From NCBI GenBank assembly GCA_022646525.1, contig CP060261.1, forward strand, positions 664,452-728,451: 64,000 nt of DNA. The letters are read 5' to 3'. The DNA is from Holosporaceae bacterium. Lineage in GTDB: Bacteria; Pseudomonadota; Alphaproteobacteria; UBA7879; UBA5542. The notes below the pieces were generated by a model that saw only the letters and a program-made list of their open reading frames with translations, was not told the DNA's origin and searched no databases. This document shows, piece by piece, positions 26,114 to 46,492 of this stretch. The position numbers were made by a program, and so were the translations under genes. The stretch's first letter is position 1; each line of letters opens with the position of its first letter.

Positions 26114-26348
26114 TCGGCCCCGGGCGCGCCCCATTTGTGGATTGCAGCCATATAGTTTTGCCCACCACCTTTTCTTTTTTTGAAAGTGAATTAACATTAA
26201 AGAGGTAGGAGTTCACATGAAAATTTTCTTGTTATGTATCAGGGTGTTGGGCGTTGTTTTTCAAGGAGCAGCGTTTCCACGTTTAGCTTCGTGGGCACCA
26301 GATGCTTTTTCGCTATCGCGCAGGGGTGTGTAAACAAAACTAACACCG

Positions 26349-26789: not shown

Positions 26790-27390
26790 AGAAGGCCCTG
26801 AACCAACTGCGCCGGAATCGGGTGCGGTGGATTGAAACTTTGAATTATTTAATAAGTTTGCGCCGCCATCTAGAAGGCAAAGCTGAACGCCATACCCCAT
26901 CGATGCAAATGTGCTTTAATCAGCTGACAAAAGATGCCACTTGGATTCAAAGTTATGCTGCCATTAAAATTGCCGTCCTTCAAACCCGCGGTGTCAAAAA
27001 ATGCACGGCGGTGTAAGGTTGAATTTGAAACCATGAATCGCATTGCCTCAACCGTGCAAAGCATGGTGGACATTAACCGTGTATGCCCTTTGAATAGCGT
27101 GCGGACGGGGGGTGAAACAGCGATGACAGGCACCATCCTGCCCATGCCTTGTTGGCGGGCGCGGTGAAGCAAGAGCGTTTGCACACGCGTCGCTAATATC
27201 TATTTCTTAATATTGAATCGCTTTCTATAAGTGTATTAAGGGTGCCCCGTGGCAGCCTTTATGCGCATGCTTTTTGTGGAGAGACCTGGGGGGGCATTCT
27301 CTCTTTTTTTTCAGCGTTGATATTTTTCATTTTAAAGACGCTGTGCTGTTTTATGATATAAATAAAATATAATTATAACAATAACTTAGG

Positions 27391-28047: not shown

Positions 28048-28096
28048 AGGCGCGTGCATCGTTGCCACATCCCCAAAAACAGGGGCGTGCGCGACA

Positions 28097-28699
28097 ATGA
28101 TGCCCCCTTCAAGGCCGGGGATGAAGAAGAAATTCTTGAGGAAAGTACACGAACCCACCTATGACCACGCTTCATATTCATTCGGGGAATATCGGCCTTT
28201 TTTAGATGGCGTGCCGACGGTGCGTCAATTGGTGGGGCTTTTTGTTGAAATGCCCCTGAGCCATTTATCAGATATTGAATGGAAAAACTTTAAACAGATT
28301 TTTAAGGGGTTTCGGTTTGATATGTTGTCGGAAATTGTGTTTGCCTTTCAAGGGGCCAATGCGCGGATTTTAAGCTTGCTGTTAGAGGTATTACCAGACC
28401 ATATTCCCATGAAACGCTTGGCCCTGATTGAAAGCCGGGTGGATGGCCATAATCAGGTGCATTTTGCCGATTTAATGAGCCGTGCACAGGCGCCTTTTCA
28501 CCTTTCATTTATTTATCGTGGGGGGCGTGTGCCCGAAGTGCTAGGGCTGATGGGCAGCCTTCAGTCTGATACCCAAGAAAAAGTAAAAGCCGTTGAGTGG
28601 CGAGATGATCAAACAAACCCCATGGCCTTTCGGCACCTGAGGTCTATGTTGATGTCTTTTAATGAAAGAATGGGAAGTGTCGTGCAGACCAGTTTTTAA
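28097..28699 (+). CDS. Hypothetical protein (possibly the continuation of 27391..28047)
   Basis: Same strand, 50-nt gap, no signal peptide of its own. Confidence 0.45.
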   Translation: MMPPSRPGMKKKFLRKVHEPTYDHASYSFGEYRPFLDGVPTVRQLVGLFVEMPLSHLSDIEWKNFKQIFKGFRFDMLSEIVFAFQGANARILSLLLEVLPDHIPMKRLALIESRVDGHNQVHFADLMSRAQAPFHLSFIYRGGRVPEVLGLMGSLQSDTQEKVKAVEWRDDQTNPMAFRHLRSMLMSFNERMGSVVQTSF

Positions 28700-28737
28700 A
28701 CGAGGGTGCAGAGCTGCTGACATCTTCGCTATCATCG

Positions 28738-29343
28738 TTATGTGCTCTTAGATAAATTATCGACGCTGGTTGCGAGCGTAAACAAACCTTCTTTAAGAGC
28801 CTGGAAGTTGTCAAGGGAGTCAGCTCCATCATCAGACTCTGAGTAGTCACTTTCAAGGCTGGTTGTGCTTGACCCGTGCTTTACCCTTGTCGTAGAGATC
28901 AAAAGGCCTGCCATGGCTTCTTTTGCTTGCCCTAAGGCTTTTCGTTCAATGCTCTCTTCGTATACTTCTAGTGTCTGTTGAAAGTTTTCCAAGGCTTCTT
29001 CCTTGTCTTCATCTGTTTCAAAATCTTCGGGCATAATGGGGGCGCGGAATTGTGCATAAAGTTGTTGTTTGACAAGGGATGCCCAGTATGTCTCGATTTC
29101 AGCAAACACTTTTTGTTTTGGGGTTTGTGGGGCAGCAGAGGCATCGTCATAATCATCGTCAGATGCGTCTTCTTCAGGTGTACAAAGGGGAGAGTCTTTG
29201 AACTGTGTTGACCACATTTCCCACTTTGCCGTGGCTTCGGTGTGGTGGATAGTTTTGCGTACCCGGGCAGAAGTTGGGCGTTCGGGCCTTTCATTGCCTG
29301 TAGCGGCGTGGGCTGTGGCCAGTGTAAGTAGGCAGGCGCCCAC
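28738..29343 (-). CDS. Secreted acidic hypothetical protein
   Basis: Truncated signal-like start GACLLTLATAHA. Upstream lie an 11-nt homopolymer (29349-29359) and an out-of-frame ATG (MNPL...). Acidic patches DASDDDYDD and SDYSESDDGAD. Confidence 0.5.
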   Translation of the reverse strand: MGACLLTLATAHAATGNERPERPTSARVRKTIHHTEATAKWEMWSTQFKDSPLCTPEEDASDDDYDDASAAPQTPKQKVFAEIETYWASLVKQQLYAQFRAPIMPEDFETDEDKEEALENFQQTLEVYEESIERKALGQAKEAMAGLLISTTRVKHGSSTTSLESDYSESDDGADSLDNFQALKEGLFTLATSVDNLSKST

Positions 29344-29600
29344 GATAGAAAAAAAAAAATAGGTTTATTAAAGAGGGTTCATCTGAGTTACTCCATCAAT
29401 TTTATTATATGTTTATGTGTGAAGAGGGGCCCAACGCCCTGTTCACTTTGACGCCACCCTAGTTATTTTTTATCACCCAAGCAAGGGCGACCTGCGCATA
29501 GGTGGCATTTGTTTGTTATTCATGAAGATTGTTGGTTTTGATGATGCTTAAAACAGGCCCTTTAAAGCGCATCTGTTTTTTTTACAATAAATGGTTTCTG

Positions 29601-30659
29601 TTACATGGGTGCGGCGGCGGGTTGTGCAGGTAAAGCTCCTGTGCGTAAGAACGTCAGATAGTAGGGGCCATAGGCTATTGTCGTCATAAGTTGGAAGACA
29701 TCACGCAGGGCTCTTTCGGCAAACGAACGAAAGGCGGGCGAGGTATGTGCTGGCAATATTTGCAGCGTTTGTTCAATCACAGGGGGGTAGCGCCTCGGGC
29801 TCTCTATCAAGAGGCGTAGACCATGTGTTTATATGCGACAGTGCTTGGGCTTCAGGATTCGCTTCTTCAAAATTTATGTCGACGAGAAAATGTTGTGAGG
29901 AACCATCGCTATCTTCGCCATCGCTATCTTCGCCATTATCGGCTACGTCAAGTTCTTCTTCTTCTTGTGCAGGGGGCGGGGGGCATATCGCCGCCATTCA
30001 TCCCACTTTGGCCGGGTTCTTCGGGGGCCAGTATTCCTTCCAACGTCCATGGGCATGCCGTCATTTTCTTCCTCCTCTATGCCGAAGACGGCTTTTAGCG
30101 CTTCTGTTAAGGCGTTTCTGGCGTGATATTGCTGTTCAAACCATGTGCGGAGTGTATCTTGAAACCAAGTTCTGTAGTTGGCTTCGCTGTTCAAGGTTAA
30201 TGGACCATGCGCTTGGGTGCAGTCGGTGACTAGATTTTCAAAAAAAGTGGGCAACTGCGTGTTGGTTATTTCAAGGGCAGCTGCTAAAATGCGTTCCATG
30301 GCTGTTGCATTCCTGTATGAATCAATATCATTGGCAAAATTGGGACACACTTGTTTTAAGGCTAATGATCGCTGTGTATATGGGAACTGAAGGAGAGATT
30401 CGACAAAAAATTGGATGTTTTCAGGCAAGATTGATAAATCGTACCCTTCAGGCACAGCGCCTCCTAATGCCAATGTTTTGATAACAAGGTCTAATTGTTC
30501 TCTTCCTAATGCATTTAAGTCGATCTGAAAAGAGACCACGGGCTGATGTTGGGGCACATCGTCTTCTTGTAGCCCCTCATGTGCGTTATTGTCGCGAAGG
30601 CTGTGGGCATTCAGAAAAACAGTGCAAGCAACAAGTGCTAAAAAGAAACAGTTACGCAT
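29601..30659 (-). pseudogene. Secreted hypothetical protein in 3 frames
   Basis: Signal peptide MRNCFFLALVACTVFLNAHS (29943..30659), continued by 29773..29997 (acidic EEEELDVADNGEDSDGEDSDG) and 29601..29810. Confidence 0.5.
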
Positions 30660-30813
30660 GGATGACTCCTTATTTTGGGTGATTTCAAGTTTTGATCAGC
30701 ATATAAATATCATGTATCTGAGCCTAGATAAGCTGCAGGGTGAAATAAAAGTAATGAATGTATATATCACGTAATGCGCTGTTTTTCAACAGTTCTTTTT
30801 TAGATCGAAGTGG

Positions 30814-31548
30814 TTACGGATGGGGGTGTAAATGGGCCCGCACGACCAGTGCTTTTGGAATAAAGAAAAGCCTGTAGAGAGTTTGATGGGCGCGTGTGAG
30901 GGGCCCTGCCATTGTGGGGAAATCTGCCGCGATGTTGGGGTCGATGATTATATCGTTTGTGGGCTGAAACCACCCTTCAACAATACACGCAGCACTTTCT
31001 AAGGGAGATTCATACAAAGGATCGGCCCCTATGGCGCGGGCCTGGGCATTAATTTTTGTAAGCAACCCTTGCACCTGTGTACATCCCACCGTGGCCAGCA
31101 CCGTTTGTGCGTGGGAGAGGCGATCTGGGCTGACTTCTGTTGTTTGCATCGAGCAGTAAAGATCAGCCCTAAACAGGTTGCCTGTCTCAACCATAAAACG
31201 CTGTGCCTCAGGTACATACCCTGTTAATAGGGTGGCGGGCACTGCGCTAAGGCCTTCAGTAGATAGATCGGGCACAGATTGCTTTGCACGTTGAAGTTGG
31301 GGTGTGTGCGCAAAATGTTGCATCAGGGCAATTTGTAAAGGGGGCGTTAAATCAGCAAAGTTCGTAGGGAGGGATGTGTCTGCTTGATACCGTGCCAGAA
31401 GGGTGCGCTCTACTGTGCTTAGATACACAATATGTGCGGCGGGCGGCGGGGCAAGCGCATCTATCTCTGTGATAGCAGGAGAATTTTTTTTAAATGAAAA
31501 TGCAGCGCATACAACGCTTAATGAAAGAAAAAGAGCCGAAAAAAACAT
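30814..31548 (-). CDS. Secreted hypothetical protein
   Basis: Signal peptide MFFSALFLSLSVVCAAFS. Confidence 0.55.
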   Translation of the reverse strand: MFFSALFLSLSVVCAAFSFKKNSPAITEIDALAPPPAAHIVYLSTVERTLLARYQADTSLPTNFADLTPPLQIALMQHFAHTPQLQRAKQSVPDLSTEGLSAVPATLLTGYVPEAQRFMVETGNLFRADLYCSMQTTEVSPDRLSHAQTVLATVGCTQVQGLLTKINAQARAIGADPLYESPLESAACIVEGWFQPTNDIIIDPNIAADFPTMAGPLTRAHQTLYRLFFIPKALVVRAHLHPHP

Positions 31549-32005
31549 GTATACGTATCCAACTTTATAGACTTATTTAGTAATATGTGGAGGCTAGCCA
31601 CACGTTTTAAAAAAATCAATAAGAATAATTGGCTATTTTCAACTTTTATGCACTTGTTTTAAGCGCAGTCTATTTCTTTTCAGAGGGTTATTACTATGGC
31701 CCCGCACTGAATCATAGCCACATCGGCCATAAGGGCAGCCATTTTGGCAAGGGCGGGCACTTCTTGGAACGCACGGAGTATGCCAAGATAGACCCCATCG
31801 GCACAGGCACGGCTGAGGTAAAGACCCGTGTGGCCTGTGCTGACGAAGGACATGCTTAGCATGATGATGTATGAAATGTTCATTAAGTGCTTCATGCCTT
31901 TTATATGTGTATGAAATCACTGAATTTCAAGGTGAGGACATGAGAGGAGGCGCATAAAAAAGTTTCGGTGGGGGGGCTTGGAAGAGTTTTTATATGGTAA
32001 CGTTT

Positions 32006-33205
32006 TTAACTAAATGGATTTACTGATAAATCAATGTTATTGCTTCTTGTACCATCGCGACGAAGGATGCCGAACCAACGCACACGATTTGGCCAAATAT
32101 TATGAAACTCAAGAATAGAAAGATTATCTGAAGTTTGTGCAGAGTTTGCACCCTGGGTGAGCGTACTTGTACCTGCGTCTTCGCCATCGTATACGTGAAC
32201 ATCTGCCTGATCATCGGCAGAAAAATCCCTGCCTCCACCAGAGTAGGCACTAGAGTTAATGGCGGTTGCTTGGAATGCATTTAGGAATGATACTAAACCG
32301 TCTTCAACATGGAAAGCGCCACCTTGTTCGTTGAATGTCCAGCTGACATCATCAATGATGATGGTGCCAAATGGGGCGAGTGCATTAAAAGCGGCACGTA
32401 AAACATCATACATTTCAGTTGCATTGCTTGGATCTGTATCAATAAGGATAACGCCGTAAGAGTTACTACCATTTAGTTGTGTTATTAAATCTTCAAGTGT
32501 ACTTGTGTTTTCTGCTGTAACGCCAGCAGAGAAAAAATCATCTGCTGCAGGATCAGCTATAAGATCTTGGTCTGTTTTTGTATATCCTGCTTCAATTTCA
32601 TTTGTTTTTCTTCCAATGACAATGCGGCTTAAAAGCGTGTCGGGATCAAGACTTTCTTCATTTTCTTTGCGTACGAGGTTGCTAAGCATTTGAAGAAATT
32701 CTGTTTTTGGTGTTTGTGCTGTTGCTGAAGGAGAGGGATCACCAAAGCTGCTTCGTTCAGGAATGCTGACCGTTCCCCCGCGAACGGTTTGTGCAGCACG
32801 GGAACGATAGTCATCGATGGCGTGAACTTTGATATCGCCATAATATGCGTTAGGTTCTTCGGACTTTTGATGTAGGAAGTGTGCTATATTCCCTGTCATG
32901 ATGCCAGATCCACCACCGATTATTAAAACATTTTTTGCTGTATTTTCAGGATTGTTTTCTAGGCGGCTGATGGCTGTTTCAACTAAATTATTGAGGACGT
33001 CTCTCTTGTAATCAGAGCTCAATACTGCATCTACAGGAAGGGTTGTCGTATAGCTGCCATCGGCGATTCTAAGTTTATTATAGGGACTAGTTGCAAGGGC
33101 ACTCAAATACGTATCATCGATAGTAGTTGTACTAGCAGCTGCACTGTAGCCAGGATGAATAAATGCTGCACAGATCATGGCGAAACAAGTAAAAAGCTTA
33201 TTCAT
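32006..33205 (-). CDS. Secreted class-I SAM-methyltransferase-like protein
   Basis: Signal peptide MNKLFTCFAMICAAFIHPGYSAAA. Motif-I-like VLIIGGGSGIMTGNIAHFL, then VHAIDD, then a long insert, then GVILIDTDPSNATEMYDVLRAAFNALAPFGTIIIDDVSW (the Methyltransf_24 / O-MTase-3-like pattern). Confidence 0.6.
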   Translation of the reverse strand: MNKLFTCFAMICAAFIHPGYSAAASTTTIDDTYLSALATSPYNKLRIADGSYTTTLPVDAVLSSDYKRDVLNNLVETAISRLENNPENTAKNVLIIGGGSGIMTGNIAHFLHQKSEEPNAYYGDIKVHAIDDYRSRAAQTVRGGTVSIPERSSFGDPSPSATAQTPKTEFLQMLSNLVRKENEESLDPDTLLSRIVIGRKTNEIEAGYTKTDQDLIADPAADDFFSAGVTAENTSTLEDLITQLNGSNSYGVILIDTDPSNATEMYDVLRAAFNALAPFGTIIIDDVSWTFNEQGGAFHVEDGLVSFLNAFQATAINSSAYSGGGRDFSADDQADVHVYDGEDAGTSTLTQGANSAQTSDNLSILEFHNIWPNRVRWFGILRRDGTRSNNIDLSVNPFS

Positions 33206-33557
33206 TATTTTATCCCTGTATTATTTTATTAATTCATACTTATAACTATATATTACTTAAATAATAGATTAGCCAATCTATTACTGTCAACAAATACAAT
33301 ATGGATTGTTAAGATATAAGAATATATAACTATTTTTGGGTTAAGATGTGATAATAGGCTTCTTTATTTATGATAACTTTGCTCTCCATAGCAATATATA
33401 CTATGCACCAGTTATGTGGGTGGAGGGGTTGTGAATAAGAAGAAGCTTAATTTTTCAGGGAATGTTTAACTAATTAAATTATTTGAATAATTTTTATATT
33501 TACTTGATAATAAAATAACTGATTAAAATATTAATAATAAATATTGGGAGAGGTTTC

Positions 33558-34882
33558 ATGTATAAGTTTTTATTTTCATGTTTTTTACTTTTTTTGTGCT
33601 TTAAAGAAGGTGCTGTTGCAGCAGTAGAAGACCCTGATCCTAATTTATTTAACCTTACCCCCTACACAATTTAATAGTATATTTTCGACGTTGAAACAAA
33701 TTCCCCTGAGAGCAATGCGCGCATCAGGGGGAATCTGGTGTACAAACCCTGTGCCAGAATATCACGAGCAAGCAGCTTTTTCTCTCAAGCCAAAGCAGAT
33801 ATTGTGAAAACGTTAAAGGATGAGCTGGAAAATGTTCGCTTTCAACAGATTAATGCGTCAACTGATCCTATTGCACCTGAAACATATTTGTTGCCTCATA
33901 TGGAAATTGGTTCTGGGTTAGGGGCGGCCAGTAAATATTTTATTGAAGACTATTTAACACAGATTGTTACAGGGTTGCGTGGGCCCAACCCAGATGAAGT
34001 ATTTGTTTTTGGGCATTAGGGGCGGCAGATAATTTCAGGCCCGCGCAGCAGAAACAGTGAATGGGGTGTTGATTCCTGCCCGGGAAGGCCCTGGAGATGC
34101 GGTAAGTGGTGGCCGTACTGCACAAGAAACCATTAACCAAGCATTAAAGTAATATGGTGTATTCAGTATTAAGTACGTTGGTAGGTTTAGGGGGTTAATT
34201 TAGAAGATCAGCTTAACCCTGTTGATGATGCGTCATCAAACGAAAATAACTGGGGTTGTTAAACCAAGACACAGGGTATTTTAAAAATATTTTTAAAAAG
34301 AATTCAACCTCTAATGATGCAAGATGGTGCTGAAAATAATTTTGTGTTGGCTGCTAATACCGACCCGTATTTTGATGCAACCATTTCTTATGCGCAATTT
34401 CAAGGAGATGATACTAGGTTTGCTTTGATTACATTGGATATTGACCCAACGGATGCCGATTCATTTTATCTTGCCCTGGTAAATTCATGGAATATGTTGT
34501 TCCCTGGTGTTGGGCGTTTATGGGTTGACGATTATAATTAGAGTCACCGTGACCAGCCAACGGTAAAAGCTGTGAAAGAGGGACTGCGGCTTTTCTTCCG
34601 CCGGCATGCAGCTGAACTGCACCCCACATGGGCAGGGGCCACGTTTGACTATTATCCCCTGCGGTGACTTATCATTATTCAGACGGTGTGCAAACCGGCT
34701 TTGATACCGATATTGAAGCCGGAGGAACAGGATCTGTGGCTGTGGTTGATGGCACAATACCTGTGTTGCGCTTTTATGAGACTCATGGGGCAGCCATTGG
34801 AAAGTGGTGTGTTGCCTTGGCAAAATCTGACGAAGATGGTGTTGTGGATACACTAACAGCAAACTTTGACCCAGTACCATAG
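33558..34882 (+). pseudogene. Divergently oriented, frameshifted paralog of the secreted methyltransferase-like gene
   Basis: ATG 33558 after gggagagg, signal-like MYKFLFSCFLLFLCFKEGAVA. Pieces: PHMEIGSGLGAASKYFIEDYL (33738..34019), FALITLDIDPTDADSFYLALVNSWNMLFPGVGRLWVDDY (34314..34541) and 34664..34882. Confidence 0.5.
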
Positions 34883-35305
34883 CAGGGGTTTGAAAATACA
34901 TCCGAAGGCGTAGCGCCCTTTATTAGCGATTTTTAAAGTAGCATTTTTGTTAAATGCCGAAAAATTTATTGTTACTATTACCAGGGTACATATTGCCGCA
35001 ACATATTGCATATTTCCGCATATTCCCGCCGACACGTCAATATATGAGAAGGGTTATGAAGAATATCTGAATTGCTATGGCTGTTTCTGAGCAAGATATG
35101 GGGCGGGATAAACGAAAGAGCATAATAAAGAAGAATACCTGTTGGGAACAATGCTTCTAGAGGCAAAAATAGGTAAGTAACCAATACCCCACTGGTGGAT
35201 AGAGCCAACCTAACGACACGCATTCTTAACCGATTGAATGGGCAAAGATTTTCTTCTGGGCAATCGAGACGTGTATGACGCTCAATAAACAATTGTTGTT
35301 CTACG

Positions 35306-35391
35306 CACCTGCTCCTGCTCCCGCTCCCACACCCCTGCTCCTGCTCCTGCTCCCACTCCCACACCTGCTCCTGCACCCGCTCCCGCTCCTC
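35306..35391. repeat. Imperfect GCTCC(T/C) hexanucleotide repeat (Pro-Ala/Pro-Thr on plus, Glu-Gln/Gly-Ala type on minus)
   Basis: cctgctcctgctcccgctcccacacccctgctcctgctcctgctcccactcccacacctgctcctgcacccgctcccgctcct. Confidence 0.6.
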
Positions 35392-36258
35392 AGCAGTGTT
35401 TTGTTGCAAATGGTGTGTAACTGGACGAACATATCTTATATCACTGTTTGCACCTGAAGTTGCAGATTGGGTGGTGAAGACTGTGCTTAAAACAAAGCAT
35501 GCCGCACAAAATTAGATATCTCATATTATTACTTCTTTTATTTCGATATAGTTTATCTTTTATAACGAAATTGTGGCAAAATTACCAGATCAAAAAGTGG
35601 GAGGGATTACTTCATAAAAGCAAAATAGGAACGAGTATATATAGATATTATAATGTAAATTTTACTTTTCCTAAGATAGTTAAAATGCAATGAAATAAAA
35701 TGATCTAGTGCTGCGCATTTCTTTGATAATTAAATGGTTTATTCAGATCATTCATCATCATTGCATGGTTGTGATTATGTCGACTTTTTGCGTTGAAAAG
35801 CCTGTTTAATTTGTTGGGTGTTGGGTTCTTCATTTGCTGTTGCATGAGAAACGTGTAATACGCAAAAAAAGCAAAAATTGTGATATTTTTCATTGTGATT
35901 TCTTTCTTAAATTACCTATGTGATATATAGGAATTTTTCAAAATCAAGAAAATTAGAAATATTATGGTAAAAGGGTTAAACTATTAAGAATTTTACAGAT
36001 AATTATATTAACAATATAGAGAGTTTTTAGAATTAATTAAAACAACACATGTATAAGTTTAATAGAATTAAATATAAGATCTTTTAATGATTCATTAATA
36101 AAAGTTAAAATTTCCTAATTTACCTTAAGGCGCTCTACTGCTAACTCTTAGCTGTTTTTTTGTATACTTTTAAAACATTAATGTCTTTGACTCATGCAGT
36201 GAACGTGGTCTAAGTTGATCTGAAAATAGAAACATTTATCCCCTTTCAAGTGAGTTAG

Positions 36259-36278
36259 TTACTTACTTACTTACTTAC
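36259..36278. repeat. (TTAC)5 microsatellite containing the ftsZ stop codon
   Basis: ttacttacttacttacttac. On the minus strand (GTAA)n supplies a stop in every frame. Confidence 0.7.
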
Positions 36279-37570
36279 TTTTCTTTTGGCGTAAGAACGT
36301 TGGCGTATCAAGATCGTCATCTTCGTCATCGGTGGCGAGGGGATCTTGATCGCTAGATTCTGTTTTTGTAAACAGATCTTCATCATGCGTTGCTTTTGCT
36401 TTTTTCAGGCCAATTTTTTTCCCAGAATGATTTTTTCTTTTGCTTTCACTGTTGTGGTAGCTACGGCTTCACTCAAGAACAGCCCCTTCTTCAGCCATCG
36501 CTTCATCATCAAGGGTGAGGGGTTTTGATCGTTATCAATAGGTTCTTCAAAATCAAGCTGTGTTTGGGGCAGCGCATCGAGTTCTTTTTCAATCTCACGA
36601 TTCAGACGGCTGGTAAGTGGCCCTTCGCCTTCGATGCCTGTGGCGACCACAGACACACGAATTTTGCCATCAAGGCGTTCGTCAAAGGTAGACCCAAAAT
36701 GATGTTTGCGTTTTTATCGACTTGTTCGCGGACATAGTTGGCGGCTTCATCAACTTCGAAAAGTGTCATATCCATGCCGCCTGTGATGTTGATGAGGACA
36801 CCGTTCGCGCCTTTTAAAGACACTTCGTCAAGCAAGGGGTTGGCGACGGCTGCCTCGGCTGCGGCTACGGCGCGGTTTTCGCCCTCAGCTTCACCTGTAC
36901 CCATCATGGCTTTGCCCATTTCACTCATCACTGTGCGCACATCGGCAAAGTCAAGGTTGACTAATCCTGGCATGATCATCAGATCGGTCACGCCGCGAAC
37001 ACCTGAATAAAGCACGTTGTCGGCCATATTGAAGGCTTCGGCAAACGTGGTTTTGGTGTCGGCCAAGCGGAACAGGTTTTGCTGGGAATAATGATCAGAG
37101 TATCGACATGTTTTTGTAGTTCTTTCACGCCCGCATCTGCCGTGCGCATGCGGTGGCCGCCTCAAAAACGAAGGGCTTTGTGACCACACCACCGTCAAAA
37201 TACCGGCATTGCGGGCGGCCTTTTGCAATCACAGGGGCAGCCCCTGTACCCGTGCCACCACCCATACCGGCGGTGATGAACACCATGTGGGCGCCTTTGA
37301 TGCGCGCTTCGATTTCGCCCAGTGTTTCTTCGGCTGAGGCGCACCCAATATCGGGTTTTGAACCAGCACCCAACCCTTGGGTGAGTTCATATCCTAACTG
37401 AATTTTCGTGCCTGCCTTTGATTCGCGAAGGCCTGGGCATCGGTGTTGGCCACTATAAATTCAACCCCTTCAAGGTTTGATTGAATCATGTTGTTGACCG
37501 CATTGCCACCGGCGCCACCAACGCCAACAACCACAATCTTTGGTTTTAAGTTTTCAAAGTTTTCAGACAT
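36271..37570 (-). pseudogene. ftsZ: Cell division GTPase FtsZ, at least 7 single-nucleotide frameshifts
   Basis: Collinear pieces: [28 protein letters not shown] (ATG 37570), [11 protein letters not shown]...[86 protein letters not shown]...NITGGMDMTLFEVDEAANYV, RVSVVATGIEG, and the C-terminal DDLDTPTFLRQKK followed by the stop at 36271. Confidence 0.85.
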
Positions 37571-37740
37571 TTCATTTTTCCTTTTTATATGTTCCCTTAT
37601 ATTTTTAGGGTTTAAAATTTTCTTTCACCCAGTCGAACAGGGCACCCCACCCTTTTTGTGGCGATTGGCATGTCGTTCGCGCCACCAATCTTGATAGGCA
37701 AACTCGAGGAGGCTGGCGGCTGTTGTCAGTGATGGGTTTT

Positions 37741-38811
37741 TCAGGTCTTCCCTGGGCCCATAAGGCGCAGTGGCATTCCCAATCGTACTTGGCGCCCCAA
37801 CACTTGCCCGGCCACAATTTTAATGCTGGGCAGCAAACTGCCCCCCCCTGTGAGCACAATACGCCTTCCTGATATTTTATACATGTTCGAGGCCTCGAGT
37901 CTAGCCTTCACGATCTTAAAAATCTCTTCGACGCGGGGTTTGATGATTTGGGTTAAAACCCGTTTTTTCAATGGCCTATGTTGTGCGTCTTTGATGTTCA
38001 GGAGAACCTTGTCATCGTCGCCTGTTTCAAGGGCGCTGCCATGTAAAATTTTAAGACGTTCGGCTTCTTGCAGGGGGATTTGCAGGCCGTGGGCGATATC
38101 GCTGGTGATGTGTAACCCGCCAAGGGGGATGGAAAGCGTGTGAATCACATTGCCTTCATAAAAGTTTGCAATTTCGATGGTGTCGACGCCCATGTCAATC
38201 AGGGTAACGCCCCGTTCCATTTCATCTTCAGTAAGGGCGGCATAGCCCGACGCCACACCTGACACAATGACCGAGCTGGTGTTGAGATGACAGCGATGCA
38301 CCGCATGCAGCACATTTTTAAGGGCCTGTTTATCGGCGGTGATCACATGAATTTTGGTGGTGAGGGTGCGGCCCATCATGCCGCGTGGGTCTTTAATGCC
38401 TTTGGTGGTGTCGAGGGTGTGTTGCAAGGGGAAGGCGTGCATCACATCGAAGGGGCTTTTCGCATCAACCCGGCTGGCCCGCAGCACAAGGTTATTGATA
38501 TCATCTTCGGTGACAACCTGTTGGGGCAGTTTTGAACTGAGCGCCACCAGTTCAGACATCAGGTGTTTGCCTGAAACGTTAATCACCACATGATCGATGG
38601 TGAGGCCGGCCTTTTTCTCAGCCATATGAACAGCATTTAGAATGGATGTTTCGGTTTTTTCAAGGTGGGTGACAAACCCTTTTTTTACCCCTCGAGAGGC
38701 ATACTGGCCCGCACCCAGCACCGTAAATTTTTGTTGGGTGGTGTTATAGTCGGCAATCAGGCAGGTGACCTTGGTGGTGCCGATATCGATGGCGGTGAAA
38801 ACCTTTTTCAT
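37741..38811 (-). CDS. ftsA: Cell division protein FtsA (the C-terminal tail continues in other frames to 37605)
   Basis: AIDIGTTKVTCLIADY actin-fold start. The expected amphipathic C-terminal membrane-targeting helix [17 protein letters not shown] lies in ORF 37605..37859, two frameshifts away. Confidence 0.9.
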   Translation of the reverse strand: MKKVFTAIDIGTTKVTCLIADYNTTQQKFTVLGAGQYASRGVKKGFVTHLEKTETSILNAVHMAEKKAGLTIDHVVINVSGKHLMSELVALSSKLPQQVVTEDDINNLVLRASRVDAKSPFDVMHAFPLQHTLDTTKGIKDPRGMMGRTLTTKIHVITADKQALKNVLHAVHRCHLNTSSVIVSGVASGYAALTEDEMERGVTLIDMGVDTIEIANFYEGNVIHTLSIPLGGLHITSDIAHGLQIPLQEAERLKILHGSALETGDDDKVLLNIKDAQHRPLKKRVLTQIIKPRVEEIFKIVKARLEASNMYKISGRRIVLTGGGSLLPSIKIVAGQVLGRQVRLGMPLRLMGPGKT

Positions 38812-39485
38812 TGAATCACCATCCGTTTGGGAAGGCGTAAATCAACCACCTTTTTCGCGCGCTTTAAAAGGCCCTGACGGTTTTCTAATGTCATCAGGGT
38901 TTTAAGGGCTTGGGGATAGCCCGATTCAGGCAACTTAATAGTGACACCATTTTTGAGATGCAGATCCCACCGGCGTTCGCCCACCCACTGGGCGCTTTTA
39001 ATTTCATCTTTAAGAGTAGGGGTTTTTTCCAGGCTTTGAATTAATTTATTGGCATGGCGGGGGGCCCCATAACCTAAAATCAAAGGATAGGCCATGAAGG
39101 GTTGGATATGATCGGTGATAATGGTGCCGTCGCTGTCGATTAAAGCTACCCGCTTTCGGTGCTGCCACAGAGCCACGGGTGTGCGTTCTTCAAGCACAAC
39201 TTCAATGGTGTGGGGCCATTCGCGGTGCAAGGATAAATGTTTTACCCAAGGATGGTGTGATAAAGATTGAAACGCTTTTTGCATATCGAAGGAAGTGAGC
39301 GGCGCGCCCGGTTTAATGTTAAGGGTGTGCATGACTTCTGATTGGGACAGATGCCGCCGCCCTTTGATTTTAATTTTCTTTACCTGAAGGCCTGCATTGA
39401 CTTGAAGCTGCACAAAAGCATCAAGTGCTTGTTGGTGCTTGCGACTGAGAAGGCCTGTGTGCCAAAACCAGAGAAAAAAAAACAA
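38808..39485 (-). CDS. ftsQ: Cell division protein FtsQ (the N-terminus probably starts at ATG 39532, out of frame across a 9-nt homopolymer)
   Basis: POTRA-like KIKIKGRRHLSQSEVMHTLNIKPGAPL and EWPHTIEVVLEERTPVALW. The upstream ATG gives MASYFKTFPFRSFRVFCFFF, and the run 39474-39482 separates the two frames. Confidence 0.85.
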   Translation of the reverse strand: MFFFLWFWHTGLLSRKHQQALDAFVQLQVNAGLQVKKIKIKGRRHLSQSEVMHTLNIKPGAPLTSFDMQKAFQSLSHHPWVKHLSLHREWPHTIEVVLEERTPVALWQHRKRVALIDSDGTIITDHIQPFMAYPLILGYGAPRHANKLIQSLEKTPTLKDEIKSAQWVGERRWDLHLKNGVTIKLPESGYPQALKTLMTLENRQGLLKRAKKVVDLRLPKRMVIQ

Positions 39486-39572
39486 AACACCCTAAAAGAC
39501 CGAAAAGGGAAAGTTTTAAAATAAGACGCCATCGGGGGACGGAGGAGCGCCGCCGATCGGGTGATCCTCGAT

Positions 39573-40541
39573 TTATCGCGGCAAAGCGCGGCATAGCCCC
39601 TCCTCGATTAGGAGATAAATACTTTCATCGTATGAGATGCCTGCATAGGCAGCGATTTCGGGCACAATGGATAAAGGCGTATAGCCTGGAAGCGTGTTGA
39701 TTTCAAGAAAAGCCAGCCGCCCGGTGTCAGGATCATAGCGAATATCGCAGCGTGTGGCACCAGAACAGCCAAGGGCCTGATGCACTTTTAATGTGTCTTC
39801 CATCACTTTCTCATACACAGCATCGGGGATGCGGGCCGGCATATAGTGCGTTGTTGCATCGTCCGTGTATTTGTTGCTGTAATCATAAAACCCCGACTTT
39901 GGTTCAAGTTCAAGAATGCCAAGCGCCTTATTATTTAAGACGGCACAGGAAAGTTCTTTCCCGGGGATATATTCTTCAACCATGACATCATCACCAAAAG
40001 ACCAATTCACTTGGTCTTCAAGAGGAGTTTGATTGTCTTGAATTATATATACGCCAACACTTGATCCTTCATCTAGGGGTTTTATGACATAGGGGGTATG
40101 CATGGGATGCTTGCGGCAAATATCTGCCCATTTACGGAGGGTGCTTTTTGGGGTGGGGACGCCAATGGATTGCATGAATTTAAGGGTCATCACCTTATTC
40201 ATGCCAATGGCGGAAGCTGTCATCTCTGAGTGGGTGTAGCGCACCTGTAAAATATCAAGAAGGCCTTGAAGGCGGCCGTCTTCAACACCGTGCCCATGGA
40301 GGGCGCCCAAAAACACAATATCGGGCTTGGGAGTAAGAAAATCGACAAGTTTTTTAATATCGCGACTGAGATCAAGAGAGGTGACTTGATAGCCAAGGCG
40401 GATCATAGATTCAAGAATTTTCTTTCCTGACATAAGTGATACGTTGCGCTCGCTATTCCAGCCACCCACCAGTAGAGCGACTTTTGTTTTGCGGGGATCG
40501 TGCCCATTTTTAGGGGGGGTGAAGTGTGTGGGTGTTGTCAT
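39573..40541 (-). CDS. ddl: D-alanine--D-alanine ligase
   Basis: KVALLVGGWNSERNVSLMSG, VIKPLDEGSSVGV, EINTLPGYT. ATG 40541 overlaps the murB stop; the ORF is open to 40571. Confidence 0.9.
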   Translation of the reverse strand: MTTPTHFTPPKNGHDPRKTKVALLVGGWNSERNVSLMSGKKILESMIRLGYQVTSLDLSRDIKKLVDFLTPKPDIVFLGALHGHGVEDGRLQGLLDILQVRYTHSEMTASAIGMNKVMTLKFMQSIGVPTPKSTLRKWADICRKHPMHTPYVIKPLDEGSSVGVYIIQDNQTPLEDQVNWSFGDDVMVEEYIPGKELSCAVLNNKALGILELEPKSGFYDYSNKYTDDATTHYMPARIPDAVYEKVMEDTLKVHQALGCSGATRCDIRYDPDTGRLAFLEINTLPGYTPLSIVPEIAAYAGISYDESIYLLIEEGLCRALPR

Positions 40542-41440
40542 GCGGGTACTCCTAAACGTTCGACTTCCCATTCAAGGGTGATGCCACTGTGGGCTTTAAC
40601 TTTATCACGCACGCGTTCGCCTAATGTTTCAAGGTCGGTGGCGGTGGCGGCCCCTTGGTTGATCATAAAGTTGCAGTGCTTTTCTGACATTTGGGCTTGG
40701 CCGACGCGAAGCCCCCGGCACCCAGCTGCATCGATAAGTTCCCATGCTTTTTTAGGGAGTGGGTTTTTAAAGGTGCTGCCGCCGGTGCCTTTTTGAATGG
40801 GTTGGCTTTCGGCCCTCTTTTTCATGTTTTCTTGAAGACGGCCATGAATCACATCGGGGTGATCGGGTGTGCCGCGGAAGGTGGCCTCTGTCACAATAAA
40901 GCCTTTGGGCAGGCTGCTGGTGCGATGAGAAAAAGTAAGATCTTCCCGCAAATAAGTGATGGCTTCACCCGCAGGTGTCAGCCCTTTGCAGCTGATCAGA
41001 TGGTCTTTCACTTCTTGGCCGTATGCGCCTGCATTCATTTTTATCGCTCCCCCGATGGTGCCTGGGATACCGATCAAATATTCAAACCCTGAGAGCCCCT
41101 GTTCGGCCGCAAATAATGTTGCGTTTCGATCGAGCACAGCACCCCCCAAAGTGATCTTTCCCTTTGACACTTCTATATTATTAAACCCTTTCCCGAGTTT
41201 AATGACAACCCCAGGGATGCCGCCATCGCGAATCAGTACATTTGAGCCTACGCCCAAAATGGTGCGGGGAATGTCGGCTGGGCAGTGACTGAGGAAGTGG
41301 GCCAGATCTTCCGCATCGGCTGGTTTAAATAAAACATCGGCTGACCCACCGGCTTGAAGCCATATTTGGGGGCCCAAAGGAACGTTTTTGTGAAGCTTGC
41401 CCCGGGTGGGGGGAAGGCGGTCGAGGGGGGGTTCATCCAT
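40538..41440 (-). CDS. murB: UDP-N-acetylenolpyruvoylglucosamine reductase
   Basis: GGSADVLFKPADAEDLAHFL, GVGSNVLIRDGGIPGVVI, GSTFKNP. The likely ATG is 41440; the ORF is open to 41506. Confidence 0.9.
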   Translation of the reverse strand: MDEPPLDRLPPTRGKLHKNVPLGPQIWLQAGGSADVLFKPADAEDLAHFLSHCPADIPRTILGVGSNVLIRDGGIPGVVIKLGKGFNNIEVSKGKITLGGAVLDRNATLFAAEQGLSGFEYLIGIPGTIGGAIKMNAGAYGQEVKDHLISCKGLTPAGEAITYLREDLTFSHRTSSLPKGFIVTEATFRGTPDHPDVIHGRLQENMKKRAESQPIQKGTGGSTFKNPLPKKAWELIDAAGCRGLRVGQAQMSEKHCNFMINQGAATATDLETLGERVRDKVKAHSGITLEWEVERLGVPA

Positions 41441-41444
41441 AGGC

Positions 41445-42833
41445 TTAACCCATTGATTTAAGTTGTTCGGGCAGGGCATAGGCCCATTCACTGATGGTGC
41501 CTGCACCCATGCATGTGATCAGATCGCCTTTATGCGCCAGTTTTTTTACAAGCGCGGGCAGATCTTTTTCAGAGCTTAGCACATGAATTTCCCCTTTAAA
41601 GTGTGTTTTGGCTGCATCGGCCAGGGTGTTACTGTCATAGCCTTTCAGGGGAGATTCGCCGGCCTCGTAAACGGGGGCAAGAATAAGTGTATCGGCCCCT
41701 TCAAAACATTTTGAAAATTCACTGAAAAGATTTTTCAGGCGGCTGTATTTATGGGGCTGTACCACGGCAATGATTTTATTTTTTGTCATCAAGCGTGCGG
41801 CTTTTAAAACAGCGGCAATTTCGGTGGGGTGATGGGCGTAATCATCGATGACGGTGATACCATCTGTTGTGCCGGTTGTGACAAACCGACGCTTCACACC
41901 TGCAAATTCTCTCAAACTTTTCTTAATAATATTTTCAGATAGGTTTAGTTTAAGCCCCACCACCACCACGGTGAGGGCATTTAGCATATTGTGTTCGCCC
42001 AACAGGGGAATCTCGACATCTTTTAGTTTTTGTTTGTCGAAGGTGACATCGAATGTCATGCCTTTTTCGCTGGCCCGAATGTTGGTGGCCCGACACTGGG
42101 CCTTCGGATCGGTGCCATAGGTAATGGTGGGCTTGTGAATTTTGGGCAAAATGGCTTTGACTGTGGGGTGATCAATACACACAATTGAAAAGCCGTAGGC
42201 GGGCACCCCGTTTGCAAATTCAACGAAGGCCTGTTTTAAAACGGCAAAGTCGTCGTCATAGTTTTCCATATGCTCGGGCTCGATATTTGAGATTACGGCA
42301 ATGGTACGGGGAATTTTGATGAACGTTTTATCGGATTCATCTGATTCAACCACCATCCAATTGCCTGTCCCCGCACGGGCATTGGAATTGATGTCGAACA
42401 AAATGCCGCCGTTTAAAATAGTGGGGTCGAGGCCGGCCTTTAAGAAGAGGGTCGACATAAGGGATGTCATGGTGGTTTTGCCGTGGGTGCCAGATAGGCA
42501 AACCGTTGACTTAAAGCGCATAATTTCAGCCAACATATCGGCCCGTGACATGATGGGAATACCTAATTTACGGGCGAGTTTAATGTCGGGGTCGCTGTCT
42601 TTAATGGCGGACGAGCGCACTACTACAGTTGCTTTTTCAAGAAGTTTGGGATCGTGCCCTTTAACTGTTTTAATGCCCAGCTTTTGAAGGCGAATGGTGT
42701 TCGCGTTTTCACCTTGGTCACTGCCCTGAACGGTGTGGCCTGCGTGGTGCAGAACTTCGGCAATGCCGCTCATCCCAATGCCGCCGATGCCGACAATGTG
42801 GAAAGTACCCAGGGAAAGAGGGGCTGTTTGCAT
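41445..42833 (-). CDS. murC: UDP-N-acetylmuramate--L-alanine ligase
   Basis: FHIVGIGGIGMSGIAEVL, SGTHGKTTMTSLM, DDYAHHPTEI. Confidence 0.95.
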   Translation of the reverse strand: MQTAPLSLGTFHIVGIGGIGMSGIAEVLHHAGHTVQGSDQGENANTIRLQKLGIKTVKGHDPKLLEKATVVVRSSAIKDSDPDIKLARKLGIPIMSRADMLAEIMRFKSTVCLSGTHGKTTMTSLMSTLFLKAGLDPTILNGGILFDINSNARAGTGNWMVVESDESDKTFIKIPRTIAVISNIEPEHMENYDDDFAVLKQAFVEFANGVPAYGFSIVCIDHPTVKAILPKIHKPTITYGTDPKAQCRATNIRASEKGMTFDVTFDKQKLKDVEIPLLGEHNMLNALTVVVVGLKLNLSENIIKKSLREFAGVKRRFVTTGTTDGITVIDDYAHHPTEIAAVLKAARLMTKNKIIAVVQPHKYSRLKNLFSEFSKCFEGADTLILAPVYEAGESPLKGYDSNTLADAAKTHFKGEIHVLSSEKDLPALVKKLAHKGDLITCMGAGTISEWAYALPEQLKSMG

Positions 42834-42846
42834 AAATTTTTAGTCC

Positions 42847-43983
42847 TTATTTCTTAACGCGATGTGTTTTATTGAGCACTGCTTCTACGGCCTCCGTGAG
42901 GGCTTTGTCAGCGTCCTCCATTTTTAAATTATGAAGATTTTCTGCTGTTTTTTCAAGGTCTTTGGGGGACTTCAAAATCTCTTCAATTTTCTTGGCCAGG
43001 CTTTCTGGTGTGACGTCGGACTGGCGCATATACCAGCTGGCTTTTTTTTCAGAAAGAGTAAGGGCGTTGTGCATTTGATGATCGTCCATGGCGGTGGGCA
43101 GGGGAATCAGAAGGGCTGGGCGGCCCACAGCCGTAAGCTCGGTTACGGTGGATGCCCCGGCGCGGGAAATCACCAAGTGTGCCTTTTTATATTCAGCTGC
43201 CATATCTTTGAAAAAGGGCGCTAAATTTACTTTAAGGCCTGCTTTTTTATAGCATTCTTGTGCTTTTTTTATATGTTCAGGGCGACATTGTTGTGTGATT
43301 TGAAGGCGCTTTTGCAGCTCTTTCGGTAGTTTGATAATTGCCTTCGTGAGGGTGGTGCTGAAAATGCGCGCACCCTGACTGCCCCCAACGGCAAACAAAT
43401 GAATGGTTTTGTGGGGCGGCTTATAGGGGCTTTTTTTCCAAACCTGTTTAATGGTATCGCGAATGGGGTTGCCCGTTTGCACAATTTTTTTGCGATCTTT
43501 TTCGCGAAGGCCCTTCGTGAAACGAAAAATAGTTGTAATGCTTTGTGCCCACGGCGCTAGCCAACGTGTGACCCGGCCTGCATAAGCATTTTGTTCGTGT
43601 AACATGTAGGGAATGCCTAAAATGAGGGCAGCAAACAAAGGAGGAAAGCTGGGATAACCGCCAAACCCAATTACAAGGGACGGGCGACTGAGCATAAACT
43701 TCCACGTGACATAGGTGATTTCAATCAGGGTGCGTGTGGCAATGGCAATTTTGCCCATAATGCCAGGACGATAGCGCGGCAAATCAAGAATAAACATGTG
43801 CGTGTTTTTGGGCTTTTCATGGAAAGCCTGGCCGCGTTTATCGGTGATGTACAGTACGTTATGGTTTTGGCGCGTTAAAATTTCGCATAAAGACTGGGCC
43901 GGAAAAATATGGCCCCCCGTACCGCCGCCAACAACAGCGACATAAGGGTTTTTAATGGTGATCTTGTTATAGATTTTTGTCAT
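42847..43983 (-). CDS. murG: Undecaprenyldiphospho-muramoylpentapeptide beta-N-acetylglucosaminyltransferase
   Basis: VGGGTGGHIFPAQSL, VISRAGASTVTELTAVGRPALLIPLP. Confidence 0.95.
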   Translation of the reverse strand: MTKIYNKITIKNPYVAVVGGGTGGHIFPAQSLCEILTRQNHNVLYITDKRGQAFHEKPKNTHMFILDLPRYRPGIMGKIAIATRTLIEITYVTWKFMLSRPSLVIGFGGYPSFPPLFAALILGIPYMLHEQNAYAGRVTRWLAPWAQSITTIFRFTKGLREKDRKKIVQTGNPIRDTIKQVWKKSPYKPPHKTIHLFAVGGSQGARIFSTTLTKAIIKLPKELQKRLQITQQCRPEHIKKAQECYKKAGLKVNLAPFFKDMAAEYKKAHLVISRAGASTVTELTAVGRPALLIPLPTAMDDHQMHNALTLSEKKASWYMRQSDVTPESLAKKIEEILKSPKDLEKTAENLHNLKMEDADKALTEAVEAVLNKTHRVKK

Positions 43984-45094
43984 CTAACCGTCGTTTCGTA
44001 AAGCTGAGAACCATGCCCATACCAAAAGCTGTTGCTATGATAGACGACCCCCCGTAGCTGAGGAAGGGTAAGGTCATCCCCTTTGTGGGGATGAGGTGAA
44101 GGGCCGAGCCCATATTCACCATGGCTTGCAAAGCAAATTGTACGGCAATGCCGCTAATAGCCAAGCGCAAGAAGAAATTATTTTCTTTTCGTGCCAGCCA
44201 CAAAGCGCGCCCCGTAATGAATAGGAATAAAAATAAGATAAAAACGCAAAAAAAGAAACCAAATTCTTCACCGGCTACAGAAAAAACAAAGTCTGCATGG
44301 GCATCGGGCAGGTGGCGTTTGACGACGCCTTCGCCGGGCCCCTTGCCAAAAAGCCCGCCCTGACGAAAGGCTTCAAGGGATTGGGTGATTTGATATTGGT
44401 CACCTGTTTTGGGGTTTAAAAAACGGTCGATCCGGCTGGCCACATGGGGGAAAATAAAGTATACCGCTGTGCTACCAACCATGCCCAGGCCTGCCATAAG
44501 ATATACCCAAAAAAGTGAAAGGCCCGCCAAATAGAACTGGAAGAACCAAACACAGCTGATCACAAACACCATGCCAAAGTCGGGCTGAAGAATAATAAGC
44601 CCAATCGTCAGCACATACAGCACCACAGAAATATCGGTTGGGGTGGGGCGTCCATCGCCTTCGCGTTGGGCAAAAAGCCAGGCGGCAATCACCGCAAAAA
44701 CAGGTTTCATGAATTCAGAGGCCTGAAGGGAGAACCCAAAAACATTCAGCCACCTTTTGGCGCCTTTGGCCTCCATGCCCCAAAAGGGGGTGATCGCCAA
44801 ACATACAAGAATGCCCAAAAATAAAAGCCAACATAAAAAGCGCAACAGCTTAGGGGGCAGAATGGCTGTGCCCACCAAACAAAACAGGGCGGGCACCATA
44901 AAGAAAATGTGGCGTTTGACGAAGAAAAAGGAATCAAGATTCAGTTTGTGGGCGACGCCAGGGCTGGCTGAAAAACTGAGAAAAAGGCCGGTGATCACCA
45001 GCAACAGAATCGATGTGAATAACCATCGGTCAACCGTCCACCACCAGGTGCTAAGATAGCTGCGATCGGTTCGAGAAAACGAGTGCCCAATCAC
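43967..45094 (-). CDS. ftsW: SEDS-family peptidoglycan glycosyltransferase FtsW
   Basis: About 10 TM segments, LQASEFMKPVFAVIAAWLFA, GMTLPFLSYGGSS. Confidence 0.9.
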   Translation of the reverse strand: MIGHSFSRTDRSYLSTWWWTVDRWLFTSILLLVITGLFLSFSASPGVAHKLNLDSFFFVKRHIFFMVPALFCLVGTAILPPKLLRFLCWLLFLGILVCLAITPFWGMEAKGAKRWLNVFGFSLQASEFMKPVFAVIAAWLFAQREGDGRPTPTDISVVLYVLTIGLIILQPDFGMVFVISCVWFFQFYLAGLSLFWVYLMAGLGMVGSTAVYFIFPHVASRIDRFLNPKTGDQYQITQSLEAFRQGGLFGKGPGEGVVKRHLPDAHADFVFSVAGEEFGFFFCVFILFLFLFITGRALWLARKENNFFLRLAISGIAVQFALQAMVNMGSALHLIPTKGMTLPFLSYGGSSIIATAFGMGMVLSFTKRRLDDKNL

Positions 45095-46488
45095 GCTTTG
45101 CGTCTTTTCTTTGTGAGGGTTTCTATGATTTTTTTCACAACCTTTTTAAAGTGATCACCCCGTTCTTCAAAATTTTTGTATTGATCGAAGGATGCGCACG
45201 CAGGAGCCAGCAAAATGGTGATGTTTTCTTTTTCAAGAAGGGCATCTTCGGTGGCTTGTTTGAGGGCTTTTTCTAAGCCTTCAAACGTGGCTGTGGGTAG
45301 GTGCTTTGAAAATAAAATGTCATAGTTTTTGGCGGCCTCGCCAAAGGCATACACACGTTGAATATGGCCAAAAGAAGTGTGTGCCGGCGTGATATCGAAA
45401 GAATCTGTTTTGGGCTTGCCCCCCACCAGCCAGAAAATATTCTTATAGGCCGCGAGCGCATGGGACGCAGCATCAATGGATGTGGCTTTGCTGTCGTTAA
45501 TATAGGTGATGTTGTGGTGCTGGGCCACGTGTTCTTGACGATGGGGCAGGCCTTCATATGTTTTAAGGCCTTTGATAATGCGTTCAGGCGACAACTGGTG
45601 CACGGCCCGGCAGACGGCATAACAGGCTGCAATGTTTTGATAGTTATGGGCCCCCTTCAGATGGGGCAGGGTGGTGACTTTTAAAATTTCTTTCGGCAAG
45701 GTGGCCAGATGATCGATTAATATGCCGTTATCAATGTAGACCCCTTTTTGCAGTTGTTTCTGCCCCGAAATGGGAATGGTGTAAGCATCGCTCAGCGACT
45801 GATAAATGGCTTCCATCAAGGGGTTGTCGACCCCAATAATTTTGGTGCCGTGGGGTTTTAACAAATCAAAGATATGCAACTTGGCCTGCTGATAGCGGGC
45901 CATATCACCGTGTCGTTCAAGATGGTTGGGTGTAATGTTTAAAAAAACACTTGCGGAAAGGGCGGGTGTTGTAATGCGTTCAAGTTGGTAAGACGACAAT
46001 TCAACAACATATGTGCCTTTGGCATCGAGGTGGGGTAATTCGAACGTAGGTACACCCAAATTGCCCCCCGCGGCTGCCGTGTGGCCTGCATGGTTCAGCA
46101 CATGGTTGATCAGCGTGGTGGTGGTGGACTTGCCGTTTGAGCCTGTCACACCCACAATGGTGGGGCCTGCCAATGTTTTAAAAAATAAGTCAATATCGCA
46201 AATAATGGGAGTGCGATAGCGAGCCGCTAAGTGGGCCACCAAGTGGGGTTTTGGCAGCATGTGCGGAATGCCGGGGCTTAGCACTAAGGCCGTTAAACTT
46301 TCCCAATCGAGCTTTTCAGGGTGGATGACGGTGAACCCTGCCTTTTTGGCATGGGTGCGTTGGGCAAGGGTGTCGTCCCACGCAAAGACAGTTGCCCCTT
46401 GATGTGTCAATGCTTTAAGGGTTGATAGGCCAGATCTCCCAAGACCTACCACATAATATGTTTTATTCTTAAAGGGCTGTATTTCCAT
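45091..46488 (-). CDS. murD: UDP-N-acetylmuramoylalanine--D-glutamate ligase
   Basis: YYVVGLGRSGLSTLKAL, GVTGSNGKSTTTTL, NDSKATSIDA. Confidence 0.95.
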   Translation of the reverse strand: MEIQPFKNKTYYVVGLGRSGLSTLKALTHQGATVFAWDDTLAQRTHAKKAGFTVIHPEKLDWESLTALVLSPGIPHMLPKPHLVAHLAARYRTPIICDIDLFFKTLAGPTIVGVTGSNGKSTTTTLINHVLNHAGHTAAAGGNLGVPTFELPHLDAKGTYVVELSSYQLERITTPALSASVFLNITPNHLERHGDMARYQQAKLHIFDLLKPHGTKIIGVDNPLMEAIYQSLSDAYTIPISGQKQLQKGVYIDNGILIDHLATLPKEILKVTTLPHLKGAHNYQNIAACYAVCRAVHQLSPERIIKGLKTYEGLPHRQEHVAQHHNITYINDSKATSIDAASHALAAYKNIFWLVGGKPKTDSFDITPAHTSFGHIQRVYAFGEAAKNYDILFSKHLPTATFEGLEKALKQATEDALLEKENITILLAPACASFDQYKNFEERGDHFKKVVKKIIETLTKKRRKA

Positions 46489-46492
46489 AACT

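Follow-up and report, generated by a model that had tools for sequence, protein, structure and literature searches.

Is ftsZ broken in this genome, or only in its deposited sequence? The window (the whole stretch of DNA analysed, 64,000 nucleotides) comes from a 1,017,199-bp contig deposited at NCBI, and its dcw cluster bears a superficial likeness to the FtsZ-less, peptidoglycan-dependent division of Chlamydiae, with ftsZ unreadable and the genes from ddl to mraY readable. Chlamydiae genomes, to our knowledge, lack ftsZ. As assembled, the gene appears as follows:

36275-37570, minus strand: assembled coding sequence of ftsZ, 1296 nt in 12 frame segments, with 11 indels

The true ftsZ measures 1299 nt, encoding 432 aa and ending in a stop codon, and the gene is frame-broken in the deposited sequence. 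Three-frame translation of the minus strand from 37570 to 36275 recovered eight FtsZ landmarks that are collinear and spread over three frames, just as the original prediction had described, the last four being, in order, NLDFADVRTVM, NITGGMDMTLFEVDEA, VSVVATGIEG and DLDTPTFLRQ. The listing of open reading frames (ORFs) reduced the gene to fragments of 58, 82, 208 and 83 aa. Three fragments matched TIGR00065, the NCBIfam ftsZ equivalog model, in collinear fashion (profile positions 11-63, 75-150 and 125-311), with scores of 56, 86 and 139 bits, each under the curated whole-protein cut-off of 295 bits. Downstream of the ftsZ stop codon the sequence (GTAA)5-CTAA-CTCA (36250-36277) gives each of the three frames a TAA stop within the space of a few codons, and the frameshifted ftsZ readings therefore all end there.

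Reference contigs were obtained by exact-sequence look-up of the window MurC (41445-42833), which matched L003 (ENA ERZ28659597, 14.7 kb), L004 (ERZ27309389, 12.6 kb) and L005 (Logan SRR6747804). The last of these runs is part of a multi-year activated-sludge time series (PMC12126587). Short-read metagenome contigs, L003 and L004 among them, were 99.4-99.7% identical to the window, and a 432-aa FtsZ in one open frame (P0001) was found unchanged on five contigs, L086 and L087 included, from at least 4 activated-sludge samples; ERZ28659597, ERZ27309389, ERZ27309384 and SRR6747804 are the sources of four of them. The neighbours of P0001 were likewise intact in the independent contigs (FtsA of 400 aa, FtsQ of 261 aa), and the gene order in L003 and L004 was mraY-murD-ftsW-murG-murC-murB-ddl-ftsQ-ftsA-ftsZ. 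The single frame that the window splits into 12 segments was thus present in five independent short-read contigs, in effect the outcome that the original prediction had named in advance as the mark of sequencing error. Exact look-ups of the window ORFs 32006-33205, 56214-57779, 3213-4265 and 14895-15644 returned no match; at least 56214-57779 and 3213-4265 are altered by assembly errors.

The intact allele has every defining feature of FtsZ, and the gene falls short of them in this deposit alone, for want of a single open frame. P0001 scored 409 bits on TIGR00065, above the 295 cut-off, and contained the PF00091 (Tubulin) and PF12327 (FtsZ_C) domains, the glycine-rich GGGTGTG signature, the T7 region NLDFADV and, at its C-terminus, the FtsA-binding peptide DLDTPTFLRQKKK, in the gene order ddl-ftsQ-ftsA-ftsZ. 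Its nearest named relatives were FtsZ proteins of Holosporales and other Alphaproteobacteria (closest 77-86% identity), an NCBI-named Holosporales FtsZ being 77% identical. A scan of GTDB species representatives with the intact FtsZ identified the clade and found core-domain identities of at most 78% among the 80 loci listed, with no same-species reference among them. The window gene, with its GGGTGTG, NLDFADV and DLDTPTFLRQ motifs downstream of ftsQ-ftsA, resembles the canonical FtsZ (TIGR00065; PF00091 plus PF12327) that closes the alphaproteobacterial dcw cluster, and departs from it in nothing unusual; its linker is short, and the protein totals 432 aa against a maximum of about 600 in free-living alphaproteobacterial matches. 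Its product comprises a GTPase domain of the tubulin type, a disordered linker and the C-terminal FtsA-binding peptide; the gene lies at the end of the dcw cluster, and the bacterium that carries it is a Holosporales-like alphaproteobacterium from activated sludge.

Base-by-base alignment of the window to the intact allele (L003:13202-14500) placed the eleven indels of ftsZ:

37432, minus strand: indel 1, C3 to C2 (-1), codon 47
37224, minus strand: indel 2, A3 to A4 (+1), codon 116
37191, minus strand: indel 3, G3 to G2 (-1), codon 127/128
37163, minus strand: indel 4, A2 to A1 (-1), codon 137
37082, minus strand: indel 5, complex, CCAACCAA to CCAGCAA (-1 plus A>G), codon 164
36700, minus strand: indel 6, T5 to T4 (-1), codon 292
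36523, minus strand: indel 7, C5 to C4 (-1), codon 351
36473, minus strand: indel 8, extra A between G and G (+1), outside any homopolymer, codon 368
36441, minus strand: indel 9, A3 to A4 (+1), codon 378
36420, minus strand: indel 10, A6 to A7 (+1), codon 385
36283, minus strand: indel 11, A5 to A4 (-1), codon 431, directly before the stop

Seven of these are deletions and four are insertions, and 9 out of 11 fall in mononucleotide runs. The original prediction had counted at least seven single-base indels, all of ±1 in mononucleotide runs and most of them deletions: the indels are real and deletions do predominate, the alignment raises their number to eleven, and two of them do not fit the mononucleotide description. 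The frame switches that it had placed at 37433, 37190 and 36700 proved exact, and those at 37215, 37160 and 37080 had the right sign with a position a few bases off or the wrong base named. The one at 36417, read as A7 instead of A8, is really an insertion (A6 to A7), and the changes at 36523, 36473, 36441 and 36283, all in the C-terminal linker and tail, had been missed. None of the 11 indels was present in L003, L004, L086, L087 or L090. Once repaired, the window ftsZ equals P0001 at 427 of the 432 codons, the remaining five each holding a deleted base; as had been anticipated, the repaired gene contains no stop codon, and no amino-acid change was found against P0001 at the 427 determinable codons. 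Only one base substitution accompanies the 11 indels in the coding sequence; it belongs to the complex change at 37082 and falls within one of those five codons.

A genuine and very recent pseudogenisation, in which ftsZ (together with ftsA, ftsQ and ftsI) would have been lost by slippage indels with peptidoglycan synthesis kept, on the way to a Chlamydia-like division, would agree with the truly broken frames in the deposited sequence, and with a bacterium of Holosporales type, probably intracellular, represented by a contig of about 1 Mb, gene decay being common in such a lifestyle. However, neutral decay would not leave a spectrum of eleven indels with no more than one substitution and without a nonsense codon. 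An elevated dN/dS, which the original prediction had named as a mark of a pseudogene, was not seen: comparison of codons 1-320 with the 84%-identical ortholog on the related contig L088 gave dN = 0.040 and dS ~2 (saturated), and therefore a dN/dS of ~0.02 for the lineage over those codons. In this lineage ftsZ thus experiences strong purifying selection. The signs expected of a pseudogene were thus lacking, since the lesions were not reproduced, constraint was not relaxed and, as detailed below, lesions were not confined to ftsZ.

In the DNA around ftsZ, two adjacent blocks differed sharply in their indels, and their border, at 37753, lies inside ftsA:

35676-37760, unstranded: indel-dense block of 2.1 kb with 21-23 indel events (~10 per kb) and 1-2 true substitutions; it runs from the final ~150 nt of ftsA through the spacer and ftsZ into the non-coding DNA downstream
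37761-47566, unstranded: nearly indel-free block of 9.8 kb with 1 indel (39482) and 9 substitutions; it spans most of ftsA, ftsQ, ddl, murB, murC, murG, ftsW, murD and mraY
37605-38811, minus strand: ftsA, with 37753 G4 to G3, 37653 G4 to G3 and 37614 T5 to T4 (at the stop codon)
38808-39594, minus strand: ftsQ, with 39482 T8 to T9 (+1), which detaches the first ~36 codons
54939-57848, minus strand: murF and murE, with 2 indels and 8 substitutions against contig L089

Indel density differed ~100-fold between the two blocks (Fisher p = 2e-15), and substitution density was ~1 per kb in both alike. Within the dense block, indels were as frequent in the 43-nt spacer between ftsA and ftsZ, and in the ~600 nt that follow ftsZ, as in the ftsZ coding sequence (8-11 per kb), and in ftsA codons 1-352 were clean and the last ~48 codons held all three indels. 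The frequency with which a run was miscounted in this block rose from 0.1% for single nucleotides to 0.7% for runs of 2 nt and 6-7% for runs of 3-4 nt, reaching 33% (6/18) for 5 nt, 67% (4/6) for 6 nt and 50% (1/2) for 7 nt, with 18 deletions versus 5 insertions. At these per-run rates about 100 indels would be expected in the clean block, where just 1 was observed. The change of one third of the 5-mers at a substitution divergence of ~0.1% is not plausible as a mutational outcome, and is what a long-read consensus of low coverage commonly shows (PMC9262707).

The 9.8-kb stretch from ddl to mraY, nearly without indels, speaks for pseudogenisation, and the coincidence of the longest clean patch with the mur genes is a caveat to any reading of the indels as artefacts, as it could on its own mimic selective retention. 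Against pseudogenisation, non-coding DNA is hit at equal density, the border of the blocks falls inside ftsA, one to two thirds of the 5-7-mers are altered at a neutral divergence of ~0.1%, and murE and murF are frameshifted as well. Selection acting on the clean mur block, with real decay elsewhere, was also considered separately and rejected, as the border is inside ftsA, non-coding DNA is equally affected, murE/murF are frameshifted and other clean patches cover orphan genes. The two murE/murF indels were 56287 A5 to A6, in the overlap of both genes, and 55010 A6 to A7, near the 3' end of murF. Together with 39482 T8 to T9 they make up all the residual indels of the clean blocks, each a +1 in a long A/T run; this bias differs from the deletion bias of the dirty blocks, and these three changes could be either polishing artefacts or real polymorphisms.

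Beyond the dcw cluster the same pattern extended over much of the window. Two further stretches were compared with independent contigs:

20842-37296, unstranded: stretch aligned to L090, with 63 deletions and 32 insertions, 95 indel events in all, and substitutions in 52 columns
48500-50720, unstranded: second indel-dense stretch, within a large gene for a repeat protein; ~25 indel events relative to L003

The first comparison covers 16.5 kb, as L090 (from run SRR12358675) spans from inside ftsZ to 20.8 kb, and it included clean patches at 30041-33420 and 22797-24066. The indel count of the second stretch may in part reflect alignment ambiguity between repeats. A multiple alignment of the window with seven independent contigs from different samples was made for 24.2-33.2 kb. 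In 64 out of 64 indel columns the window was the sole deviant, 3-7 other assemblies being concordant, and a single polymorphic substitution was found among the independent assemblies. Isolated substitutions of the window shared bins with indels in 24 of 25 cases. Several window ORFs turned out to be fragments of longer proteins present in Logan and ENA assemblies; P0243 (771 aa), P0245 (352 aa) and P0249 (447 aa), intact elsewhere, were split in the window into 3, 4 and 5 frame pieces, respectively. In ftsI the PBP_dimer and Transpeptidase domains lie in different frames, as do profile positions 3-106 and 104-306 of rsmH, and orphan genes and outer-membrane genes are frame-broken in the same way.

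The original prediction had contrasted a lost ftsZ with ftsA, ftsQ and all mur genes kept, which is wrong for this assembly, where ftsA, ftsQ and murE/murF carry indels. Since ftsQ, ftsI, rsmH and murE/murF are also broken, the notion of a lost ftsZ with everything else retained fails. Of the two outcomes left open at that time, sequencing error or very recent inactivation, the former stands, and loss of ftsZ is not supported, the lesions being unspecific as to gene, shared with non-coding DNA and arranged in blocks. Equal damage to ftsI, rsmH, orphan and outer-membrane genes, together with the absence of these indels from seven independent assemblies from several samples, makes genuine pseudogenisation very unlikely. 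The more specific scenario of a Holosporales-like sludge endosymbiont that has just lost ftsZ, ftsA, ftsQ and ftsI through real slippage indels, with ddl to mraY intact, would, if true, show division without FtsZ just as it arises, in a group other than Chlamydiae, and we regard it as extremely improbable. Chlamydiae also differ from the window in that here ftsZ is complete, equals the intact allele once repaired and is under purifying selection, and in that murE, murF and ftsI are hit by the same artefact.

Real indels might be tolerated if slippage during transcription or programmed frameshifting by the ribosome made up for them, and the location of most lesions in mononucleotide runs would suit such a rescue. 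Frameshifts in poly(A) tracts of the insect endosymbionts Buchnera and Blochmannia offer a parallel, as there too the bacterium is host-associated and mononucleotide runs are the sites affected. The slippage-rescued frameshifts of Buchnera and Blochmannia occur in long A/T tracts, one per gene, and are reproducible across sequencing methods, and efficient transcriptional slippage needs roughly 9 or more A/T. The window ftsZ, unlike those genes, has 11 lesions in runs of 1-7 nt that independent data do not reproduce. Every mRNA would require eleven independent corrections, the runs of 1-7 nt are well below the ~9 A/T needed, and no slippery heptamer or long tract exists at each site. Moreover, the insertion at 36473 is outside any run, the event at 37082 is a complex change, and a plain open frame is found in the same clone elsewhere. 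The probability of this explanation is, in our opinion, vanishingly small.

We also considered that the contig might average over a mixed population, or over the genome copies of a polyploid symbiont, with intact and defective ftsZ side by side and some of the indels being real minor alleles. A metagenomic source and the few window-specific substitutions in otherwise clean blocks are in line with such a mixture. Nevertheless, assemblies from at least 7 runs are identical with respect to indels and contain one polymorphic site in 9 kb, and the error spectrum tracks homopolymer length throughout the window, so that we assign this mixture a very low probability. The window has some substitutions of its own, 9 of them in the clean dcw block, and may therefore come from a slightly different strain than the short-read contigs, which makes strain-specific lesions a formal possibility.

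We conclude with high confidence that ftsZ is an ordinary, functional gene and that its frame breaks are consensus errors of the assembly, mostly miscounted homopolymers, and not mutations. Direct observations behind this conclusion are the indels themselves, the dependence on run length, the patchy and gene-independent distribution and the absence from every independent assembly; the sequencing platform, the incomplete polishing and the reason for the patches are what we infer. The 1.02-Mb contig would be a long-read consensus (of Nanopore or PacBio-CLR type) corrected in patches only, with ftsZ presumably in a patch left without correction and the mur genes in one that received it. Such patches might derive from partial short-read polishing, or from short-read contigs bridged by raw long-read consensus. 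Clean patches generated by frame correction against reference proteins (e.g. with proovframe) were considered unlikely, because the conserved ftsZ would have been corrected first, and the patches are base-identical to the short-read contigs.

The errors of the window have the known features of homopolymer error in long-read or hybrid assemblies (Nanopore R9-type, PacBio CLR): changes of ±1 biased towards deletions and more frequent with increasing run length, indels far in excess of substitutions, coding and non-coding DNA affected alike, and short-read assemblies free of them. They differ from it in being patchy, with clean blocks of 1-10 kb, which points to polishing of parts only or to a hybrid backbone. 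The fragmentation of gene calls by homopolymer indels is a documented failure of unpolished or low-coverage Nanopore metagenome-assembled genomes (MAGs) (PMC9262707), and has likewise been described in Nanopore MAGs elsewhere (PMC12007338). Much of the window in the deposited 1.02-Mb contig carries ~6 indels per kb, and automated annotation will therefore report dozens of false pseudogenes, essential division and cell-wall genes included, with the risk that the artefact is mistaken for reductive evolution or for FtsZ-less division in a Holosporales symbiont. The broken ftsZ is no real biological feature, and its practical value is a warning about the contig. Contigs L003, L004, L086 and L089-L096 could serve to correct this region.

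Some further observations were made along the window. The ends of L003, L004 and L087 fall within 5 nt of each other (window ~36069-36073), ~200 nt downstream of ftsZ, and L086 and L090 read through this point; a low-complexity AT-rich stretch or strain variation probably broke the assemblies there. A large share of the window ORFs has no Pfam domain, and tRNA/tmRNA and Rfam scans of the 64-kb window found no RNA gene. Between murF and mraY the dcw cluster is interrupted by ~7 kb:

47714-54900, minus strand: murF-mraY interval, which contains a very large gene made up of tandem repeats, each ~35 aa (104-110 nt) long; consensus RADVLxHARPFIRDNMSGxEIASIINAVRxIP

A partial intact copy of this gene is present at L003:3-3053 (ORF of at least 1016 aa). 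Pfam yielded nothing convincing for the repeat gene, and no PDB sequence matched it; its product could be an effector of the repeat type, as made by an intracellular bacterium. The halves of a phage terminase large subunit (Terminase_6N and Terminase_6C) were found as separate ORFs ~3.4 kb apart, at ~21.4-22.2 kb and ~25.6-26.1 kb of the window, corresponding to L090:15136-15918 and L090:11166-11741. Both halves are intact in the short-read contigs, with two OMP_b-brl genes and other ORFs between them, and the split terminase may be the remnant of a prophage or a gene-transfer agent. Finally, a family of ~400-aa orphan proteins devoid of Pfam domains is encoded just downstream of ftsZ:

32006-33205, minus strand: orphan-family gene
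33729-34748, plus strand: orphan-family gene

At the same place, the related contig L088 (10246-15674) carries four paralogs of this orphan family that share 23-35% identity.
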